A DNA stretch of 42,918 bases from a phage: assembly GCA_025726505.1 (NCBI GenBank), contig GCA_025726505.1_4340.1. One strand, 5' to 3'. A model generated the notes under the pieces. The model did no database searches and had not been told where the DNA came from. It saw nothing but the letters and a program-made list of their open reading frames with translations. This document shows positions 21,229 to 29,639 of this stretch, piece by piece. Every line of letters starts with the position of its first letter. The first letter of the stretch is position 1. A program made the position numbers and the translations under genes.

Positions 21229-22629
21229 TTAGCCGTCCACATTAAAATCAATACGAGTGATATATTTACTACCCCACGCAGAATCGGCCTGAGGGATAGT
21301 CGCGTAATCATCTACAGCCTGAACGTTTATCACGGAGCCGTCGGAATAGGTGATGTCGATACTTGTCGCGCCGTTCATTACTACTTTTGCCGATGCCGCT
21401 GGGCGTGTTACAGGAGACGCCGACGTAATTATTGGTGATGTTGTATTTTGGTTTACCTCTACAGTAGCCGCGGATAATTTAATCCCTGAAACGCCATCCC
21501 CCGTAAATGACCCGGTAACTCCGTCTGAATATATCCATGCGTCCATCCGTATTCTCATTGTTTTATCTTCTGTTGCGGTGATTGTCTCCGATATTCGTAA
21601 CCACCCTCCGCCTACGTCGGTTACATCTGTACCGCCTGGGCCGGAATAAATGCTACCATCCCGCAAATCAACAACTGCTGAGCCTAATACTGTAGGAAGT
21701 TCTCGCACGTATATCCGTATGAAATTGTATCCGTTTGCCTTTGCGAAGAAACTAAAAGTCACCTTGTCGCCAACACCAACGCTAACATCTACAGTCTGGT
21801 TTATTAGGTGGTTACCTCTTGCGTCGGTAGCAGTTACGTCGTACGTGTCAGCGGCTGTTAAAACACCTGTTTCAGATACTGATACACTCACCAAACCTTT
21901 GTTCCAGTTTGAAGAAGAGAAATTGCTTGAATATAGGAATCTGTTAGTTACTGACACCTCTGGCGGCACACGCCCGACCGCAACACCATCAATGAACGTA
22001 AGAGGCCATTCATTGGCGGCGGACCGCACAAGATTGCCATTTCGGTTGATGTAGTAAACCTGTGGCCCGTCGTACACAATACGGCTATCAAGCGTGGATG
22101 ACAGCATGTTAATTGGCGGGTATCCTGCAGGCCCTTCATTGCTCCAGATGCGCGGGAACGTCGTATCGTAGTTCGCGTATATTTTCAGGAAACTACCCAG
22201 ACAATCCCCGTAACAACCATACAAATCTGGCAGATTGTTAATCAGGCACTGGTTCTCAAGGTCCTGGAACGGTGATTTCTCGGCGGTTGCCGTGAAAGTA
22301 ATAGTCCAGTTAATGCCGTCTTCGGTGGACTCGGCGATGGTGGACGTGATTGTTACCTGATAATCTTCAATACCCATGCCGAAGTCGTGCGCCATCCAGA
22401 AACTTGACGCACCGCCGTCTACTTTTTCAAGGAACGATAGAAACGCCTGCCGCCCCATTGCGGATGTAATCAGGGTTACGCTCACCGGAAACACGTCGTA
22501 ATACGTGTCGCGGCCCTGACGTACGCCGCCGCCAGCTAAATCTACACTCCAGACGTTGTTACGTCTGGTCATTGAGTAGCCTTTCGACACCACCGGCTTA
22601 AGGCTACGTGGAAAGTATAAGTCAGTCAT
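21229..22629 (-). CDS. Minor tail / distal tail protein
   Basis: 466-aa ORF directly after tape measure gene; 1-nt stop/start overlap. Confidence 0.5.
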   Translation of the reverse strand: MTDLYFPRSLKPVVSKGYSMTRRNNVWSVDLAGGGVRQGRDTYYDVFPVSVTLITSAMGRQAFLSFLEKVDGGASSFWMAHDFGMGIEDYQVTITSTIAESTEDGINWTITFTATAEKSPFQDLENQCLINNLPDLYGCYGDCLGSFLKIYANYDTTFPRIWSNEGPAGYPPINMLSSTLDSRIVYDGPQVYYINRNGNLVRSAANEWPLTFIDGVAVGRVPPEVSVTNRFLYSSNFSSSNWNKGLVSVSVSETGVLTAADTYDVTATDARGNHLINQTVDVSVGVGDKVTFSFFAKANGYNFIRIYVRELPTVLGSAVVDLRDGSIYSGPGGTDVTDVGGGWLRISETITATEDKTMRIRMDAWIYSDGVTGSFTGDGVSGIKLSAATVEVNQNTTSPIITSASPVTRPAASAKVVMNGATSIDITYSDGSVINVQAVDDYATIPQADSAWGSKYITRIDFNVDG

Positions 22630-24941
22630 TATTTGAACCCCGGCGCGTTTCTTGTGGCCTTGCGGGCCTTGCTAATCTTACTGTTACTGTTCTGCAAAGA
22701 TGCAGCCACCTGCTCCTCGATGATGATACGCAAACGGCCTTCATCATCCTGCTCGGTGGATACGTTGCCAATCTGACTCGATGTATTATTTACAATGGTA
22801 ACGTTAGATGGGCCGGAAGAAGACCCGTTTTGCCCCATAATTTCTTTCATCTGCTGTGCGGTGCGTACACGTGACGCACCAGCGGGCATGATAACTTCTG
22901 GTTTACCACGTTCAGCGATGGTGGAAGCCTGCCCGGCTGATAACTGTCCGCCCTGTTCACGTGCGGACCTGATAGCGGAAATCTGCGCCATACCCGCCCC
23001 AACGGCAGCGGCGGCAGCTACAGGAGCCAGGAACGGACCAACTACAGGGATAGCCGCTGTGGACTTGTACGCCTCGATAGCCGCGGTGTACGTGGCGATA
23101 GTGGCCTGTACGATAGCGAATGCCTTATACGCGCCAGAAGCCTCGCCCAAAGCCGAACCGATGTTTGAAGCCATGTTACCGAAGGCGGTTGCCGTTGCGT
23201 CGGCACGCTTCGTAGCATACTGCTCATTGATGGCGTTAAGCGCCGCCTGGTACTGCTTCTCACTAATAAGCCCCTGCTCACGGTACTTATCCGCTACCTC
23301 CAGTTTCTGCTGTTCCTGGATGTCGAGAAGCTCAAGCTCAGTAGCGTTCTGACCCATAATCTGTGCCATGAAGTCCTCGCCTTTCTGCTGCTTTTCCTGC
23401 TGCTCTTTTCTTTTCTTATCCAGTTCTTCCTGTCTGGCCTGCTCGGCTGTGAGCATAATTTGAGTTTTGGCGTTTTCATACTGCTGCTGGCTTATCGTTC
23501 CGGCGCGGTTGAACTCCTCCAGTTTCGCCAGTTTCTGTTCTTCCGCAGCGGTAATGCGCGAAATCTCATCTCCGGTTGTGCGGTCGACAGTAGCCAGGAA
23601 ATCTTCCGCCGCTTTTTTCTGTCGTTCAGCCGCCGTTTCTTCGCGTTTGGCTTGTGCCGCCAGCCGTTTCTCGTTCGATTTGGCCTCGCGGTCGGCCTTC
23701 GCTTTTTCGGTAGCGTCGATGCGAGCGATGTCTTGTTGTGCTTCCGTGTCACGCGCAGCATTATACGCGGCGATCTGTTCTTTGGTGACAGCTTCACGTT
23801 TAGCGAACGCCTGCTTATCCAGTTCAGCTTGCGCACGGATACGCTCGCGGTCACTTAAGATAGCGATTTGCTGGTTTTTGACGATAGCTTCGTTCTGTTC
23901 CTGGAATCTCTGCGTTGTTGAGTTGACGTTACGACCAAGATTCTTTTGGGCCTCCGCCGCCGCGTTTGCGGACTTCTCCGCGTTCTCCAGTGCCGTGGCG
24001 TTCTTGTTGGCATTGTCGGTCAGGCGGATAAGTTCCGGGTTCAACTGTTTTGTATTACCGAGCCAGTCGGTAAACACATCGGCGATGCGACGGGCATTCT
24101 CGGCGGTTGGCTCTTTGTTAAACGCACTCTGCGCCGCTATCATTTCCAGCGCCTGGTCACGGTTAACCCCAAACTTACTGCTAAGCTCTGCGATATTCTG
24201 CGCCAGCATGTTGACGCCTACGATGTTACCCTCGTAAGTGCCACCGAGTTTTTCTAACGTGTCGCCTACATCCGCACCTTTAGAGACCAATGCATCGTAC
24301 TGGCTGATAGCTGATGCTGTGGATGCCTTCCATGTCTCCCATGATTCTGCGTCCTCACGAACAGCTTTAGCTGTTTGCTGTGCGATAAGGTCCGCGTTAG
24401 CCTTAGCCAGCGCAAGCTGAGTCTCCGCCGCTTCTCTGCTGATTTGGGTAAGCTGGATAAGGCCGTCTGTCAGTTCGAGAGAGCCGGACGCCGTTTGCTG
24501 GAAAGTATCTTTTAGCTGTTTCTGTGCGGCTTCGAGGTCTTTTGAACTGCCTTCTGCTTCGGTTAACGATTTATACAGGACACCACCGATTGCTGACGCA
24601 AGAGCAATTACGGCCCCAAGCACCGCGCCACCAGGGCCGAAAGCACCCGCAAGCTGAGAGCCTTGTTGCCCGATTGCTACGAATGCAGACGTGCCGGACT
24701 GCAACTGGACGACCATGTCCTGCACCTGGAAGCCTACCTGCCCGGCGGCGTTACGGAATTTAGCGAAACCGTCAGAAGCCGCTTTAGACGTAGCGGAGTT
24801 TACTTTATTAACATCCGGCGTTAGTTTGTTTACGGATGTGTCCGCACGGTCTGCGGATGCCGCCATAGCGTCAAGCTGTTTAGCGGCTACATCAGCGCCT
24901 TCTGTTTTTACTCTGGCAATTAGGGAAGCCGTATCAGCCAT
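22629..24941 (-). CDS. Tail tape measure protein
   Basis: 770-aa Ala/Gln/Glu/Lys-rich coiled-coil protein with Gly/Ala hydrophobic segment (AFGPGGAVLGAVIALASAIGG); start ATG 24941 with GAGGG RBS. Confidence 0.85.
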   Translation of the reverse strand: MADTASLIARVKTEGADVAAKQLDAMAASADRADTSVNKLTPDVNKVNSATSKAASDGFAKFRNAAGQVGFQVQDMVVQLQSGTSAFVAIGQQGSQLAGAFGPGGAVLGAVIALASAIGGVLYKSLTEAEGSSKDLEAAQKQLKDTFQQTASGSLELTDGLIQLTQISREAAETQLALAKANADLIAQQTAKAVREDAESWETWKASTASAISQYDALVSKGADVGDTLEKLGGTYEGNIVGVNMLAQNIAELSSKFGVNRDQALEMIAAQSAFNKEPTAENARRIADVFTDWLGNTKQLNPELIRLTDNANKNATALENAEKSANAAAEAQKNLGRNVNSTTQRFQEQNEAIVKNQQIAILSDRERIRAQAELDKQAFAKREAVTKEQIAAYNAARDTEAQQDIARIDATEKAKADREAKSNEKRLAAQAKREETAAERQKKAAEDFLATVDRTTGDEISRITAAEEQKLAKLEEFNRAGTISQQQYENAKTQIMLTAEQARQEELDKKRKEQQEKQQKGEDFMAQIMGQNATELELLDIQEQQKLEVADKYREQGLISEKQYQAALNAINEQYATKRADATATAFGNMASNIGSALGEASGAYKAFAIVQATIATYTAAIEAYKSTAAIPVVGPFLAPVAAAAAVGAGMAQISAIRSAREQGGQLSAGQASTIAERGKPEVIMPAGASRVRTAQQMKEIMGQNGSSSGPSNVTIVNNTSSQIGNVSTEQDDEGRLRIIIEEQVAASLQNSNSKISKARKATRNAPGFK

Positions 24942-25314
24942 CTTCTCTGCCCTCAAATATTCCGTCTAAGCCCATGATAACCTCGGCTTCGAACAAACTT
25001 ATGCCGTAACCGGCGACATCACGAAACGCTACCAAATCTTGCCATTTGAGCGCATCGCGCGGGATTATAACGATAGTATCATCTGTTTCGCGCTGTAGGA
25101 ATTTAATGGCACGGTATTTCTCGAACACGTCGATAAGAGAAACGGGGCATTCCGGCCCCGTCGCTTCTTTCATCTGCGGTTCTTTAATCACGCCCATTGC
25201 AATCAAAGCCGCCTGGTGGCCCGCCGCGATGTCGTCGAATTGCTTACGTTTGTGGCGGTCGACAAAGCACCATTGCGCAAATTCATACAGCGCTTTTACT
25301 TTTCCGAGAGTTTC
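24934..25314 (-). CDS. Tail assembly chaperone T-frame extension (probable G-T fusion by -1 frameshift)
   Basis: Frame -1 relative to chaperone G is open from 25314 to 24934; G and T frames overlap 19 nt containing GGAAAAG (25305-25299). Confidence 0.45.
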   Translation of the reverse strand, partial: ETLGKVKALYEFAQWCFVDRHKRKQFDDIAAGHQAALIAMGVIKEPQMKEATGPECPVSLIDVFEKYRAIKFLQRETDDTIVIIPRDALKWQDLVAFRDVAGYGISLFEAEVIMGLDGIFEGREDG

Positions 25315-25712
25315 TCACGGCTATCGGTGTGATGCTTAACTACGGCCTCTGCCAACCCACTGTACTGGTCGAACAGGTTAGCAAGCGCCTCTTTGCTGAA
25401 TGGTTCGTCGAATGACCAACCGGTGACGATTTCCACGGCAAGCTGCTTGTTCAGGTCCATCACCCGCCAGCCCTTCTCATCATTATAGCGCGCCCAGTTA
25501 TTCAGCGCCTCGCACTCTTTATCTAATGGCGCAAGTTCTTCCGTAAGGCGTCGAATTGCCGTTGTGTAGGCACGGCCCGCACGAACACCAGCGTCACAAT
25601 CGGGGCCGATGACCTGCAACCATTCACCGGAATCTTTACCACTGGGCAGAAGGATAGGCATTTTAGTACCGGCGGCGTGGCGGTCGGCAAAATAGAAATC
25701 AGAAAGTTTCAT
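25296..25712 (-). CDS. Tail assembly chaperone (lambda G-like)
   Basis: 138-aa ORF immediately upstream of tape measure gene; slippery heptamer at its 3' end. Confidence 0.6.
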   Translation of the reverse strand: MKLSDFYFADRHAAGTKMPILLPSGKDSGEWLQVIGPDCDAGVRAGRAYTTAIRRLTEELAPLDKECEALNNWARYNDEKGWRVMDLNKQLAVEIVTGWSFDEPFSKEALANLFDQYSGLAEAVVKHHTDSREKLSEK

Positions 25713-25819
25713 TCTTTAGTCCTTTGGTTAAGAGGTTACTGGTTATGGTTAATGCGCCAGGCGGGAACCACCCGCTTTTCGTGTGCGACACTAGGCGCAA
25801 ACTTATTCTAGCACACTAC

Positions 25820-25876: not shown

Positions 25877-26203
25877 ATGCGTAAATTAGTACTAGCTCTG
25901 GGTTTTATGTCTTTTGCTACTTTTGGGTCTCCGTGCGAACAGGTATTTAGTGAATCTGTTCTTATGACTTCTGGTGTGCTCGAGAAAGCCGACCCTACTA
26001 TTGTAAAGGCGTTCAAGGACTCTACAGTTCGCGAGTGTGAGGCCGCCGTGGAGGTTGGTAAATCGGGCCTACCCCCGCAGGCCGTAACCTACACAGTGAT
26101 ACGTTCGGTAGAGAAAAACGGAGATGCTTTCTATAGCCTACTGACAGCCACCCGTCTGCAAATGGTAATGACAGGGTGGGCGATAGGCGCAGAAAGTAAA
26201 TAG
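25877..26203 (+). CDS. Small secreted/periplasmic protein (signal peptide)
   Basis: 108-aa product with N-terminus MRKLVLALGFMSFATFGSPC; two Cys; GAGGAA RBS. Confidence 0.6.
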   Translation: MRKLVLALGFMSFATFGSPCEQVFSESVLMTSGVLEKADPTIVKAFKDSTVRECEAAVEVGKSGLPPQAVTYTVIRSVEKNGDAFYSLLTATRLQMVMTGWAIGAESK

Positions 26204-26268
26204 TCGCCTTTATTTAAAGGAATGCACTGTGGTTAAATAGGACAAATCCTAAACACGAGGAAGTAAGC

Positions 26269-27399
26269 ATGGCCCAGAAGAAAATAACCGACGAACAGTT
26301 ACAGGAAGAATTGAACGCCGGGATGAAGATTATTGATATCGCCCGTAAATACGGCATCTCAGACCGCGTTATTCGTATCCGTAAAGCGAAGCTGGCTAAG
26401 AAAGGTGTAGGCCACGGGCGCGACGTTAGTCACCTTGTGCCGGACGGCTACAAGATTAAAGGCACGTCGTCCCTGGTGGACGAGTTCGGCAACACTAAGT
26501 TGCAATGGGTTAAGACTGACACCGATGCTGAACGTCAGGTCGAGTTGATGAAAGCCGTAATTGAAGGCATGAAGTCAGAGATTACACCTGTTGCGCCGGT
26601 TAAAGCCGTTCGCACCAAACGCGACGACAAGCTGCTCAACCTTTACACCGTGTCAGATTTCCATCTCGGTATGCTGGCATGGGCCGACGAGAGCGGCGAC
26701 GACTGGGATATGAAGATTGCGGAAGGCCTGTTCTCTCGATGGTTCGACGCGGCGTTTCAGAAAGCGCCGGACGCGGGAACAGGTGTTATTAACCTGCTAG
26801 GTGACCTTGCGCACTTCGATAGTCTGGTTGCCGTTACACCCGCAAGCGGTCACGCCCTTGACGCCGACACCCGTTATCAGAAACTTGTCCGTTACATGAT
26901 TCGTATGGTCCGCCGTGTCGTTGATATGGCGTTGGTTAAGCATAAAAATGTTCGCTTGCTTATCGTGCAAGGGAATCACGACGAATCGGGTATGATTTGG
27001 TTGGCTGAGATGTTCAGTACGCTGTACGACAATGAGCCGCGCGTGTTCGTCGATACGTCGCCGGATGTTTACAAGATGGTGCAACACGGCAAAACTACGC
27101 TGTTCTTCCATCACGGGCATAAAGCACGATTCGACGCTATCGAGCCTGTGATGATTGCCAAGTTCCGCAAAGCGTTCGGCGAGAGCGTCTATAGTTACGC
27201 ACATGTAGGACACCTTCACCACCAGAAGATTGTTGAAAGCCGTAATATGGTTGTCGAACAACATCGCACCCTGGCGGCTAAAGACGCCTACGCCTCCCGA
27301 GGCGGCTGGATGTCAGGTCGTAGTGCAAATGTAATTACTTATAGCGCCGAATACGGCGAGGTCGCACGTTTAACTATTTCACCGGAGATGCTGGGATGA
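26269..27399 (+). CDS. HTH-domain fused to calcineurin-like metallophosphoesterase
   Basis: N-terminal HTH (IIDIARKYGISDRVIRIRKAK) then phosphoesterase motifs SDFHLG, GDLAHFD, QGNHDE, FFHHGH, HVGHLHH; GAGGAAG RBS. Confidence 0.75.
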   Translation: MAQKKITDEQLQEELNAGMKIIDIARKYGISDRVIRIRKAKLAKKGVGHGRDVSHLVPDGYKIKGTSSLVDEFGNTKLQWVKTDTDAERQVELMKAVIEGMKSEITPVAPVKAVRTKRDDKLLNLYTVSDFHLGMLAWADESGDDWDMKIAEGLFSRWFDAAFQKAPDAGTGVINLLGDLAHFDSLVAVTPASGHALDADTRYQKLVRYMIRMVRRVVDMALVKHKNVRLLIVQGNHDESGMIWLAEMFSTLYDNEPRVFVDTSPDVYKMVQHGKTTLFFHHGHKARFDAIEPVMIAKFRKAFGESVYSYAHVGHLHHQKIVESRNMVVEQHRTLAAKDAYASRGGWMSGRSANVITYSAEYGEVARLTISPEMLG

Positions 27400-27629
27400 T
27401 TAAAGCCTTGTGGATTTTCGTCATAATGCCGATTGTTATTTTACTGGTTTTATCTATCGCGGTGATAGGCATGGCGACGGTCTTAACCTTTATCTCTATG
27501 GATTTGTCCGTGTTCTCTGGCCTGTACGAAGCTGTTACTGCGATAGCGCCGACCGCGATGCGTCTTTTATATGTAGGTGCTGTTGCTATTTCGGCAGTTA
27601 TCGTTCTGATTGATGAGAGCTATTTATGA
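27396..27629 (+). CDS. Small polytopic membrane protein
   Basis: 77-aa product, almost entirely hydrophobic; ATGA-coupled on both sides. Confidence 0.6.
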   Translation: MIKALWIFVIMPIVILLVLSIAVIGMATVLTFISMDLSVFSGLYEAVTAIAPTAMRLLYVGAVAISAVIVLIDESYL

Positions 27630-27856
27630 CTTCAAAATACGACCGAACTATGACAAACACCCACGGCAGTACAATGACTGTTGATGTCTACGATGTGCTC
27701 CGCGCTTTCGACATCCGCGACCCGGCGTTACAGCACGCATTGAAAAAGCTGTTGTGTATGGGGCTACGCGGACACAAAGACACAGGTACAGACTTAGACG
27801 AGGCAATAGAAAGTCTGGAGAAGTTACGGGAATACCGGAGTAATATTGATGAGTGA
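27626..27856 (+). CDS. Hypothetical protein
   Basis: 76-aa ORF, ATGA overlap with membrane protein gene. Confidence 0.5.
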   Translation: MTSKYDRTMTNTHGSTMTVDVYDVLRAFDIRDPALQHALKKLLCMGLRGHKDTGTDLDEAIESLEKLREYRSNIDE

Positions 27857-28053: not shown

Positions 28054-29220
28054 TTATGCGTAACTAATACGTTGAATTACGATAGACGACTGGTACTGGT
28101 TGCCGGTAGCCTGACCTTCAATGGACTGAGTGATTGATTCCGGGCCAGATATTTCTGGCGTAACAGCCGTAAGCTCTGCGCGTTTCAGGCTGAAAGACAT
28201 AGCCCCGTTTACCCCCGCCAGAATAGAGTTAATCTCTACCTGCTGCTCGTTGATAAACTTCTGAATCATCGCCATGTCATACAGCTTACCGGAGATAGAG
28301 AACGTGTTAGCTGCGCGGCTACGTTCCACAAACGCTACGTTAGTGTTACCAAGTTCGAACTGTGCGGACGCGCTGTTATCGTTGGTGATGGTCAGACTGT
28401 CGCAACGCAACGGCGTAGAGCCATCAAACACAGAAACGTCAACCGAGGAGAATGGCTCATCACCAAACGTGACAGAGGAGAAGTTGGAACCAGACGGTGG
28501 CGTAGTAAGAATCTCCTGGCTACGTCCGATGAATGGGAAGCTGCCGGTCACCATAGCGTTAACTGCCTGCTCAATAGTGAAACCAGAAACTTCCACGCCT
28601 TTGGTTAACGTGTACGCGTTAGTACCGCCGCACTGGCCTTTGTACCAGGTAAGGATAGAGAACGTCTTACACGCGTTACCGGTTTCCAGCGTGTCGCCGG
28701 TTTTAGCCTTACTAGTTTTTGTCTCGGTGGTCAGGGTGTGTTGGATGCCCGCACCAGTAACAACCGTAGCCGTTACTGCAGTAACAATAAATGGTTTTGC
28801 GTTATCGCCTGTTAAATCGGTAAATGCAATCAGGTCGCCTACCCCAACTCCGTCAGTGATAAAACTGCCGGTAGCGCGTGTGAACGTCTTGCCCGCCGGT
28901 GCGACCGTAATCGACAGACTGGACAGGGAAACACCGGATTGCCACGTAGAGCCTAAAGCACCAGCCAGCCAGTCATCCTGGCTTTTCGAGCTAAGCTCGA
29001 TCGCGTATTCACCGCTAACCTGTTTGTTACCGGTGCGGATGGATGTAGTTTCACGGCTGCCGTCCAGTTCGTTGGATGTCAGCGTGTCGCGGGTGATAGC
29101 AGGGACACCGCCAGTGTTACGCAACGGTGACCAGACCGGGTTAGTCGGTGTTACGCCCGGGGTGACTTCCGCCACATAGAATTGCGCGGTATTCGCGCCC
29201 TTAAAAGGAGTTGTAGCCAT
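28054..29220 (-). CDS. Major tail (tube) protein
   Basis: 388-aa Thr/Ser/Gly-rich protein between neck genes and tail chaperone; ATG 29220 with AAGAGG RBS (track GTG 29226). Confidence 0.6.
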   Translation of the reverse strand: MATTPFKGANTAQFYVAEVTPGVTPTNPVWSPLRNTGGVPAITRDTLTSNELDGSRETTSIRTGNKQVSGEYAIELSSKSQDDWLAGALGSTWQSGVSLSSLSITVAPAGKTFTRATGSFITDGVGVGDLIAFTDLTGDNAKPFIVTAVTATVVTGAGIQHTLTTETKTSKAKTGDTLETGNACKTFSILTWYKGQCGGTNAYTLTKGVEVSGFTIEQAVNAMVTGSFPFIGRSQEILTTPPSGSNFSSVTFGDEPFSSVDVSVFDGSTPLRCDSLTITNDNSASAQFELGNTNVAFVERSRAANTFSISGKLYDMAMIQKFINEQQVEINSILAGVNGAMSFSLKRAELTAVTPEISGPESITQSIEGQATGNQYQSSIVIQRISYA

Positions 29221-29222
29221 AT

Positions 29223-29639
29223 TCACAGCCTCTTGGTGAATGCAATAAAGTTAATTGACAATGGTCGTTTGGCCCATCCGTTTTCTACAATCAGCGGCCC
29301 CAGGCTAACCGATTGAACCTCGGCGCAGATGTCGTTACGCGAAAATGACTTACCTGCTTTAAACGCCGTGTTAAGTAAGTCTGCCATTTTATTGATTGGC
29401 GCGCTACCTTTCACCGATGCGTAGTTAATGTCGACCTGATAAACACCTGAGCGTTGTTCCGTGAAGAACAAATCCGCCTGCTCGGTATCTGCCAGCAACA
29501 TGTAACTTGCCAGATACGGCGTATCGGTTGACGTCGGCGCGTCGATGTTTTCAAGCGCAACCTTGATGCTGTTTGCAGCCCCGAATGCTACCAGCGGCAC
29601 ATCGAACGCTTTTGTTAAGTCCTCAAAGTAGCCCATCAT
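29223..29639 (-). CDS. Tail terminator / neck protein (positional)
   Basis: 138-aa ORF directly upstream of tail tube gene. Confidence 0.45.
   Translation of the reverse strand: MMGYFEDLTKAFDVPLVAFGAANSIKVALENIDAPTSTDTPYLASYMLLADTEQADLFFTEQRSGVYQVDINYASVKGSAPINKMADLLNTAFKAGKSFSRNDICAEVQSVSLGPLIVENGWAKRPLSINFIAFTKRL

Follow-up and report, generated by a model that had tools for sequence, protein, structure and literature searches.

A conserved A_AAG tetramer and a covarying long-range RNA helix at the predicted tail assembly chaperone frameshift site of Guernseyvirinae phages

On the minus strand of a 42,918-nucleotide stretch of phage DNA (NCBI GenBank assembly GCA_025726505.1, contig GCA_025726505.1_4340.1; the whole stretch is called the window here), the tail assembly chaperone gene G and a second open reading frame (ORF) that overlaps its end in the -1 frame, T, lie directly upstream of the tape measure gene, and T is only reachable by a change of frame, as in the G/GT arrangement of phage lambda (coordinates are collected in Table 1). 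The window is a Kagunavirus (subfamily Guernseyvirinae), with a 1-kb region 100% identical to several Kagunavirus coliphages (BUCT789, Bas72-75). An original prediction, made by a model from the letters of the window, had proposed that the G and T frames are joined by programmed -1 frameshifting, and its reading of the locus was confirmed for the most part by the sequence and the ORF list: G runs from an ATG at 25712 to a TAA, with ...CTC TCG GAA AAG TAA as the zero-frame codons at its 3' end; the -1 frame, closed by a TGA at 25317-25315, is open from 25314 to a TGA at 24936-24934; and the heptamer GGAAAAG differs by one base from GGGAAAG of lambda. The chaperone ORF had also been said to end just upstream of the tape measure gene, which is incorrect, as a 122-codon -1 segment intervenes and it is the stop of this segment that overlaps the tape measure start (ATGGCTGA / AUGGCUGA, 24934-24941 of the minus strand, an overlap kept in nearly all relatives). 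Residues 1-138 of G followed by 121 residues from the -1 frame give a predicted GT fusion of 259 amino acids (aa). On comparison with relatives, what is novel here is best described as an A_AAG site abutting the G stop, together with a covariation-supported long-range RNA helix held at a fixed distance of 5 nucleotides (nt).

Relatives were drawn from IMG/VR and metagenomes, and the 1-kb region matched 224 phage records at megablast sensitivity and 403 with blastn, most of them from Guernseyvirinae phages of Salmonella and Escherichia. For analysis of the site, 121 distinct sequences were anchored on AAAG within the last three codons of G; as this set was itself selected for AAAG, its AAAG count is not independent support, and 45 Guernseyvirinae-type loci found by G homology were used as an independent set. 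Heptamers, spacers and stop codons were counted in 84 distinct sequences, and the synonymous-site test covered 15 lineages.

The predicted -1 frameshift giving a conserved G/GT pair was strongly supported by the comparison. A -1 ORF extending 359-365 nt past the G stop was present in every relative down to 44% amino acid identity, with the +1 frame closed, and T was conserved from the first codon after the shift (K-V-x-A-L-Y-x-[FY]-A-x-W...). No start codon was conserved: the position of the first ATG, GTG or TTG in the T frame differed between lineages, from codon 5 up to codon 95, and three lineages had no ATG before codon 109. The 5' region of T evolves as coding sequence, with an entropy of 1.24 at the third codon position vs 0.58 and 0.53 at the other two over the first 35 codons, a ratio of non-synonymous to synonymous substitution (dN/dS) of 0.1-0.5 between lineages in the first 32 codons, and stops in the other two frames. 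As the T sequence upstream of any possible start is conserved as coding sequence, it is presumably translated in the -1 frame from the end of G, and it is highly probable that GT is produced by a -1 shift at this site. Distant G homologues (L048, L050, L051 and L052; 30-35% identity) kept the layout of G followed by a -1 ORF, with canonical heptamers (U_UUU_UUC, A_AAU_UUU) 24-57 nt before the G stop and without the A_AAG-stop arrangement, and the frameshift is therefore older than the signal used here.

The original prediction took the near-lambda heptamer as the signal and placed the site correctly, but the first three bases of the heptamer vary and A_AAG alone is invariant. The 84 distinct sequences comprised GGAAAAG (57), CGCAAAG (10), GGUAAAG (8), AGCAAAG (3), GGCAAAG (2) and one each of GGGAAAG, UGUAAAG, AAAAAAG and CCAAAAG, with GUCAAAG present in the set of 121. 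All 45 independently found loci ended in AAAG followed by a stop, and only the distant L048-L052 were without this arrangement. The codon 5' of AAG could be any of GAA, GUA, GCA, GGA, CAA, AAA or UCA; because some of these (GCA after A or C, and GUA) cannot re-pair in the -1 frame, tandem slippage of two tRNAs is not the conserved mechanism. No canonical X_XXY_YYZ heptamer was found in the overlap of the window, where G_GAA_AAG does not fit the pattern, and canonical heptamers occurred only in L041, L084, L116, L145 and the distant homologues. The sole conserved shift motif was the in-frame A_AAG, which makes this a tetranucleotide site of the NNA_AAG type.

Across the 36 long ORFs of the window, in-frame A_AAG was observed 36 times compared to 52.4 +/- 6.4 in codon shuffles, a mild under-representation in line with reports that shift-prone motifs are avoided in enterobacterial genes. 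At this frequency the chance of one A_AAG in a 6-codon overlap is about 2%. The G site was the only A_AAG in the window with a stop codon directly after it, and conservation across relatives lifts it above chance. In E. coli assays A_AAG was by far the best -1 tetramer, giving 5.6% frameshifting with the IS3 pseudoknot after a 5-nt spacer, compared to about 0.15%, barely over background, for tetramers without a stimulator (PMC4066793); NNA_AAG sites are used by IS1222 and present in B. subtilis cdd (PMC5009743). The motif alone proves little, and a stimulator was therefore expected.

RNA structure prediction downstream of the heptamer, which the original prediction had named as a check, gave no local hairpin, and the structure that proved to be conserved was a long-range helix. 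Over 60-120 nt downstream, RNAalifold returned a consensus of -0.1 kcal/mol and single-sequence z-scores ranged from -1.7 to +1.2, so a local hairpin or pseudoknot was rejected. An upstream Shine-Dalgarno-like stimulator was likewise rejected, with nothing conserved in the 30 nt upstream of the site in 13 lineages (read by eye), and an Rfam scan of 24900-25750 matched no frameshift element and nothing better than E=3.4.

The synonymous sites of G and T were more informative. Among 51 codon columns with an invariant degenerate amino acid, the codon varied in 46, and the five codons that never varied were AAG (the last G codon), the overlapping AAA, GUA, GCG and CUG, all at or just after the slip site. 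As these codons are frozen at synonymous sites, A-AAG-UAR-NN-GCGCUG is selected as nucleotides, and it was the frozen GCG-CUG that led us to look for a complement of GCGCUG and so to the helix. Each of the 15 lineages had an exact CAGCGC; counted from the stop, its position was +203 in nine of them, the window among these, and +129 in the remaining six. In the window, GCGCUGUAUGAAUUUG pairs with UAAAUUCCUACAGCGC with one U-C mismatch and one G.U (predicted -24 kcal/mol), and the duplexes of other lineages were 10-17 base pairs (bp) long with predicted energies of -18 to -29 kcal/mol. Two clades were distinguished: clade A, which is that of the window and in which the strands lie about 190 nt apart with the 3' arm ending at +208, and its sister clade B (L021-L047, L091-L122, L176-L192), in which the 3' arm lies about 125 nt downstream and ends at +134. 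The arms enclose a loop of about 178 nt in clade A, compared to about 110 nt for clade B, placing this among pairings at a distance of at least 100 nt that are backed by covariation.

We tested the pairing by sliding the partner strand and by shuffling. In clade A (35 non-redundant sequences, 13 pairs), 95.6% of cells were standard-paired, compared to 16-54% when the partner was slid by 1-3 columns. Four pairs had changed on both sides (13 cells), and none of 500 shuffles, a control that ignores phylogeny, reached the observed pairing, the covariation score or the count of doubly changed cells; an earlier set of 26 sequences gave a like outcome. The clearest clade A pair joins the synonymous third base of a Tyr codon (UAU/UAC) with the first base of an Ile/Val codon, and was U-A in 18 cases, C-G in 8, G-C in 1 and U.G in 3. 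In one lineage (L012) the 5' arm had changed from UAUGAA to UUGAAA and the 3' arm from UUCAUA to UUUCAA, with amino acid changes on both sides and 13 perfect pairs retained. Clade B (21 sequences, 10 pairs) behaved similarly, with 91.0% of cells paired vs 18-48% when slid, five pairs changed on both sides (23 cells) and none of 500 shuffles reaching the observed values; a core C-G pair was replaced by U-A in six sequences and was never broken. In Shashou, the phage described as having no slippery sequence, the arrangement reads CAG GAA AAG UAG, with a 5-nt spacer and GCGUUGCU paired with AGCAACGC.

Folding gave the same picture. Unguided RNAalifold on 245 nt of clade A returned an 11-bp long-range helix as the sole consensus structure, and the minimum free energy (MFE) fold of the window from 25305 to 25070 included the helix (-80.6 kcal/mol, z = -3.0). 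Where core cells lacked a Watson-Crick pair, 13 were G.U and 2 were A.C, which indicates an RNA structure of the sense strand and not a feature of the DNA or of an antisense RNA. Protein constraint alone as the cause of arm conservation was rejected in view of the frozen synonymous sites and of the slid-register and shuffle controls; the use of the Arg codon CGC in nearly all clade A sequences also speaks against it. More weight attaches to the slid-register control, to the synonymous sites that never vary and to compensations that arose repeatedly and independently. The helix is very probably a selected RNA structure.

The 3' strand has not stayed in one place. In clade B the common 5' arm pairs with a different 3' arm, which is out of codon register, and in two sequences (L024 and L025) the clade B arm coexists with a clade A arm that has decayed, a state resembling a halfway stage in the move of the 3' strand. 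Choice of the 3' arm by duplex energy alone was considered and rejected, as other partners score equally in several lineages; position, register and covariation were decisive. We found no earlier account of this helix, and nothing relevant emerged when full texts were searched for long-range stimulators of tail chaperone frameshifting.

The geometry of the site was close to invariant. The 5' arm began exactly 5 nt after AAG in 120 of the 121 sequences, and the 5-nt spacer took 16 different sequences in the set of 84 with its length constant. A 3' structure about 5-8 nt from the tetramer, or else an upstream Shine-Dalgarno sequence, is what an A_AAG site would be expected to have, and the covarying helix lies at 5 nt, a position that suggests a stimulatory role; the spacer between A_AAG and the IS3 pseudoknot is also 5 nt (PMC4066793). 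The stop was adjacent to AAG in 83/84 sequences (UAA, UAG and, once, UGA), the -1 codon that overlaps it was always GUA, though Val has four codons, and the base after the G stop (25295 in the window) was A or C in 82/83 of the sequences with an adjacent stop, which may reflect a weak termination context or simply the amino acid of the -1 frame. The exception, L067 (Ga0065715_10089440), reads AAG UUA UAG, with the stop one codon later, and keeps both A_AAG and the 5-nt spacing, so stop adjacency is not essential.

From these observations we infer the frameshift itself, its efficiency, its A-site timing and its stimulation by the helix as follows. A small fraction of the ribosomes translating G would shift -1 at A_AAG and read on to the TGA at 24934 to give the 259-aa GT (...EKLSEK|VKALYEF...), and the rest would stop at the adjacent UAA and release the 138-aa G. 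A single tRNA-Lys would slip from AAG to AAA, with the preceding codon needing only to end in A. The stimulator would be the helix that starts 5 nt 3' of AAG, formed by pairing of 25293-25278 with 25105-25090 within the T coding region, and with AAG in the A site its base would stand at the mRNA entrance of the ribosome. Kinetic work on dnaX and infectious bronchitis virus (IBV) has reportedly made this the standard geometry for slippage during translocation. The adjacent stop would keep G short and leave the T region almost free of ribosomes, the helix re-forming between those that pass; strands 110-190 nt apart could stay paired because nearly all ribosomes would terminate before reaching the helix. 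Slippage of tRNA(Lys) on A_AAG stimulated by the long-range helix is, as a complete model, probable in our view, and that the helix stimulates the shift is, considered separately, marginally more likely. That the phages carry a distinct bacterial -1 cassette is a reading we hold at slightly better than even: a bare A_AAG at the stop would be combined with a stimulatory helix whose strands lie 110-190 nt apart inside the -1 ORF, the helix persisting as ribosomes terminate before it, with the 3' strand relocated, the 5' strand fixed and the helix forcing coordinated amino acid changes on two separate stretches of T (ALYEF, KFIQR).

Several points weigh against this model. The helix is not universal, as one sequence (L081, PPYF01422658.1) has GCGCUC with no evident partner. 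Formation of a helix may be slow when the loop to be closed measures about 110-180 nt, and in some lineages alternative pairings of similar predicted energy compete with it, for example at +68 in L014 and at +248 in L030. Because both arms are coding and codon-aligned, their conservation is partly protein constraint, and shuffling takes no account of phylogeny. That the stop is adjacent almost everywhere, which slippage in the A site does not require, could mean that it is itself part of the signal, with slippage in the P site.

Two alternatives are unlikely in equal measure and are the strongest of those considered. The first, which was how the original prediction read the site, is that P-site tRNA-Glu and A-site tRNA-Lys slip in tandem on G_GAA_AAG as on lambda G_GGA_AAG, with no further signal. 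GGAAAAG is the commonest variant, after re-pairing from GAA to GGA two Watson-Crick pairs would remain, with a G.U in the centre, and true canonical heptamers do occur in relatives (G_GGA_AAG in L041 and L116, A_AAA_AAG in L084 and L145); Levin and colleagues are said to have found that lambda needs only its heptamer. The freedom of the first three positions (CGC, GGU, AGC, GGC, UGU, GUC, CCA) tells against tandem slippage, since several of these bar re-pairing in the P site (GCA to AGC or CGC, for example), and it leaves the frozen synonymous sites of GCG-CUG and the covarying helix at its fixed 5-nt spacing unexplained.

The second is a 'shifty stop', in which the P-site tRNA-Lys on AAG slips to AAA during slow decoding of a stop in the A site, the stop codon acting as stimulator and the helix being secondary or unrelated. 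The adjacency of the stop, the invariant GUA for the overlapping Val and the A or C that follows the stop would all fit, the last because Poole and colleagues reportedly place A and C after a stop among the weak termination contexts in E. coli. The sequence with UUA between AAG and its stop (L067) nevertheless keeps A_AAG and the spacing; with AAG in the P site the helix would lie only 2 nt past the A-site codon and would already be partly unwound; and G requires its stop in any case, since the zero frame does not meet another for about 30 codons. An entry listed in PMC5009743 (Weiss et al. 1987) points to 'shifty stops' as an established concept, and a shifty stop and the A-site mechanism are not mutually exclusive.

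Marginally less likely than either is a helix that is real but serves another purpose, such as mRNA processing or stability (an RNase III site, for example) or control of T or tape measure translation, with the shift relying on A_AAG, either alone or together with the stop. The role of the helix has been read from its position, the predicted stem of the window extends into a long imperfect rod, and one lineage lacks the helix, all of which would allow for this. Against such a role, the 5' arm has kept its distance from AAG even though the 3' arm moved by about 75 nt between clades, conservation is limited to the 10-13 bp nearest the slip site and does not extend along the rod, and in E. coli assays a tetramer without any further element stays close to background (PMC4066793).

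Far less probable is that there is no frameshift and that T is translated from its own internal or non-canonical start, the CTG at 25290 (the choice made in the Bas75, Jersey and Shashou annotations) or the TTG at 25206 or ATG at 25197 (as in XY2). Most GenBank records do annotate T as a separate gene, and CUG (UUG in some lineages) is almost invariant at 25290-25288. The helix explains this invariance: CUG pairs with CAG, and lineages with UUG have either CAG opposite it (G.U) or a compensating CAA. Annotators disagree on the start, the canonical starts leave at least 30 preceding codons conserved as protein, K-V-x-A upstream of the CUG is conserved too, and there is no conserved Shine-Dalgarno sequence; with no conserved start codon, an independent start of T was rejected. 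Slippage of RNA polymerase on the A run, giving a -1 mRNA on which the ribosome stays in frame, has a negligible probability, as the window has four consecutive A but many relatives have only three (GGUAAAG, AGCAAAG, CGCAAAG) and runs of about 7 or more are known to support transcriptional slippage.

Compared to known systems, this is functionally a G/GT frameshift of the lambda type in its layout and protein families, without the canonical heptamer. It shares with lambda (Levin et al. 1993; Xu et al. 2004; PMC5009743) two overlapping ORFs that immediately precede the tape measure gene and of which the second, in the -1 frame, lacks its own start, a shift near the end of G, a short chaperone and a longer fusion, and a heptamer one base apart. 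Lambda uses the canonical G_GGA_AAG, whereas here A_AAG alone is conserved, the zero-frame stop is immediately adjacent and a conserved RNA helix lies downstream; about 2.2 kb of genes on the opposite strand also lie between the tube gene and G, and the Pfam families differ (TAC_4 and TAC_18). In mechanism, the closest analogues are the A_AAG sites of IS3 and IS1222, without sequence or structural homology. In IS3, IS1222 and cdd, as proposed here, the one tRNA-Lys of E. coli reads A_AAG with no need for re-pairing of the preceding codon, a stimulatory structure lies about 5-6 nt downstream, and a low, percent-range level is expected (PMC4066793, PMC5009743). Stimulation in those elements comes from a local pseudoknot or hairpin, or from a Shine-Dalgarno sequence upstream, whereas here there is neither a local structure nor a conserved Shine-Dalgarno sequence, and the genes are unrelated. 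The dnaX gene of E. coli (A_AAA_AAG) resembles the site in the slip of tRNA-Lys on AAG, in a 3' structure after a short spacer and in the host translation apparatus, and differs in its full heptamer, upstream Shine-Dalgarno sequence, local hairpin, efficiency of about 50% and shorter product.

In the plant viruses BYDV (barley yellow dwarf virus) and RCNMV (red clover necrotic mosaic virus) the zero-frame stop abuts the shift site, as it does here. These viruses and the IS3411-type apical-loop/internal-loop pseudoknots also bring together far-apart partners of an mRNA in -1 frameshifting (PMC5009743). In all of them a local stem-loop is reinforced by a distant loop-loop contact, whereas the helix at the present site is itself made of two distant strands, no conserved hairpin being found in the first 120 nt; both strands moreover lie inside a sparsely translated -1 ORF, and the 3' strand is at two places in two clades.

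Both products belong to tail assembly chaperone families. G matched Pfam PF08748 (Phage_TAC_4, E=1e-8) and T matched PF23812 (Phage_TAC_18, E=9e-18), each above the gathering score, and in PHROG 15027 ('tail assembly chaperone', 259 positions) G covered positions 1-138 (E=1e-65) and T positions 138-259. As one 259-position profile spans G and T, PHROG 15027 was built from fused proteins. The G/GT pair is thus not new, the GT fusion being already known at the level of annotation: Salmonella phage Shemara (Cornellvirus, NC_069152.1) carries a two-piece coding sequence named 'tail assembly chaperone frameshift product' of 259 aa, joined at the equivalent GGAAAAGTAA / GGAAAAGUAA / ...GGAAAAGTAAAAGCGCTG... 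junction. This Guernseyvirinae GT, known as an annotation only, has in common with the window the protein family, the length of the fusion and the GGAAAAGUAA junction. The Shemara announcement does not mention the frameshift, that of Shashou records 'no canonical slippery sequence' (PMC6776780), and in the sources on the Guernseyvirinae fusion we found no slip-site analysis or description of a stimulator. Most other GenBank records split T off as a separate gene with inconsistent starts, at the CTG equivalent to 25290 in Bas75, Jersey and Shashou and at the ATG equivalent to 25197 in XY2. In PQ850596, NC_021777, MK931440 and MN927226, T is likewise separate, with a CTG start or an internal ATG that drops 35 conserved codons.

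The order of minus-strand genes around the site is kept, with the terminator (29223-29639) and a tube-like protein (28054-29226) followed by G, T and the tape measure gene, so that G and T occupy the expected position between tube and tape measure. The tail module is broken up between the tube-like gene (PHROG 290) and G by four opposite-strand (+) genes at 25877-27856, among them those for an exonuclease/phosphatase-like protein of 376 aa (26269-27399, PHROG 704) and for a conserved protein of no assigned function (25877-26203, PHROG 14165). Because these genes split the module, G probably heads its own transcription unit. A promoter-like GTTACA-17-TATATT (9/12; a consensus match only) was seen at 25859-25831 on the minus strand, in the divergent intergenic region upstream of G. 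Within the T coding region, at 25162-25141 of the minus strand, lies a terminator-like hairpin (8 bp, 6 of them G-C; GACGGGGCCGGAAUGCCCCGUU then UCUCUUAUCG); it falls inside the loop that the long-range helix closes, where it overlaps the codons for the conserved G-P-E-C-P, and its conservation does not extend to all lineages.

Table 1. Features of the G/T locus in the window, with the basis for each.
Feature	Position	Strand	Basis
G, tail assembly chaperone ORF; zero-frame product of 138 aa	25296..25712	-	ORF list, Pfam, PHROG
T segment, -1 frame, from codon AAA (25302-25300) to TGA (24936-24934)	24934..25302	-	Pfam, PHROG, coding signature
GGAAAAG (G_GAA_AAG), heptamer of the original prediction; first three bases unconserved	25299..25305	-	84 distinct sequences
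A_AAG, conserved putative -1 slip tetramer; zero-frame AAG at 25301-25299	25299..25302	-	Comparison of relatives
UAA, zero-frame stop of G, directly 3' of AAG	25296..25298	-	Stop adjacent in 83/84 sequences
UAAAA, 5-nt spacer from slip site to helix	25294..25298	-	Constant length, variable sequence
Helix 5' arm, GCGCUGUAUGAAUUUG; encodes A-L-Y-E-F in the -1 frame	25278..25293	-	Frozen codons, pairing counts, RNAalifold, window MFE
Helix 3' arm, UAAAUUCCUACAGCGC; encodes K-F-L-Q-R in the -1 frame	25090..25105	-	CAGCGC at +203, in-register pairing, covariation
Tape measure gene, 770 codons; ATG at 24941-24939	22629..24941	-	Bas75 annotation (identical phage), ORF list

A G/GT frameshift is textbook knowledge and is annotated in at least one relative, so that the original prediction by itself adds little. 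The signal described here explains why annotators disagree across a large subfamily, in which more than 400 GenBank records match and most split T off with an arbitrary CTG, TTG or ATG. It also provides a rule for annotation, to join the frames at A_AAG to give a protein of 259 aa, which would correct PQ850596, NC_021777, MK931440 and MN927226. Current predictors would miss a tetramer combined with such a helix; PRFect, for example, folds windows of 50 and 100 nt only (PMC10885494), and programs with a reach of 50-100 nt downstream would not detect it. With its natural compensatory variants and two alternative 3' arms, the locus is a compact system in which to study in E. coli how a frameshift ratio is tuned by a long-range helix where translation is sparse. 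If the reading as a distinct cassette is true, the stability of the helix would set the ratio of GT to G in these phages.

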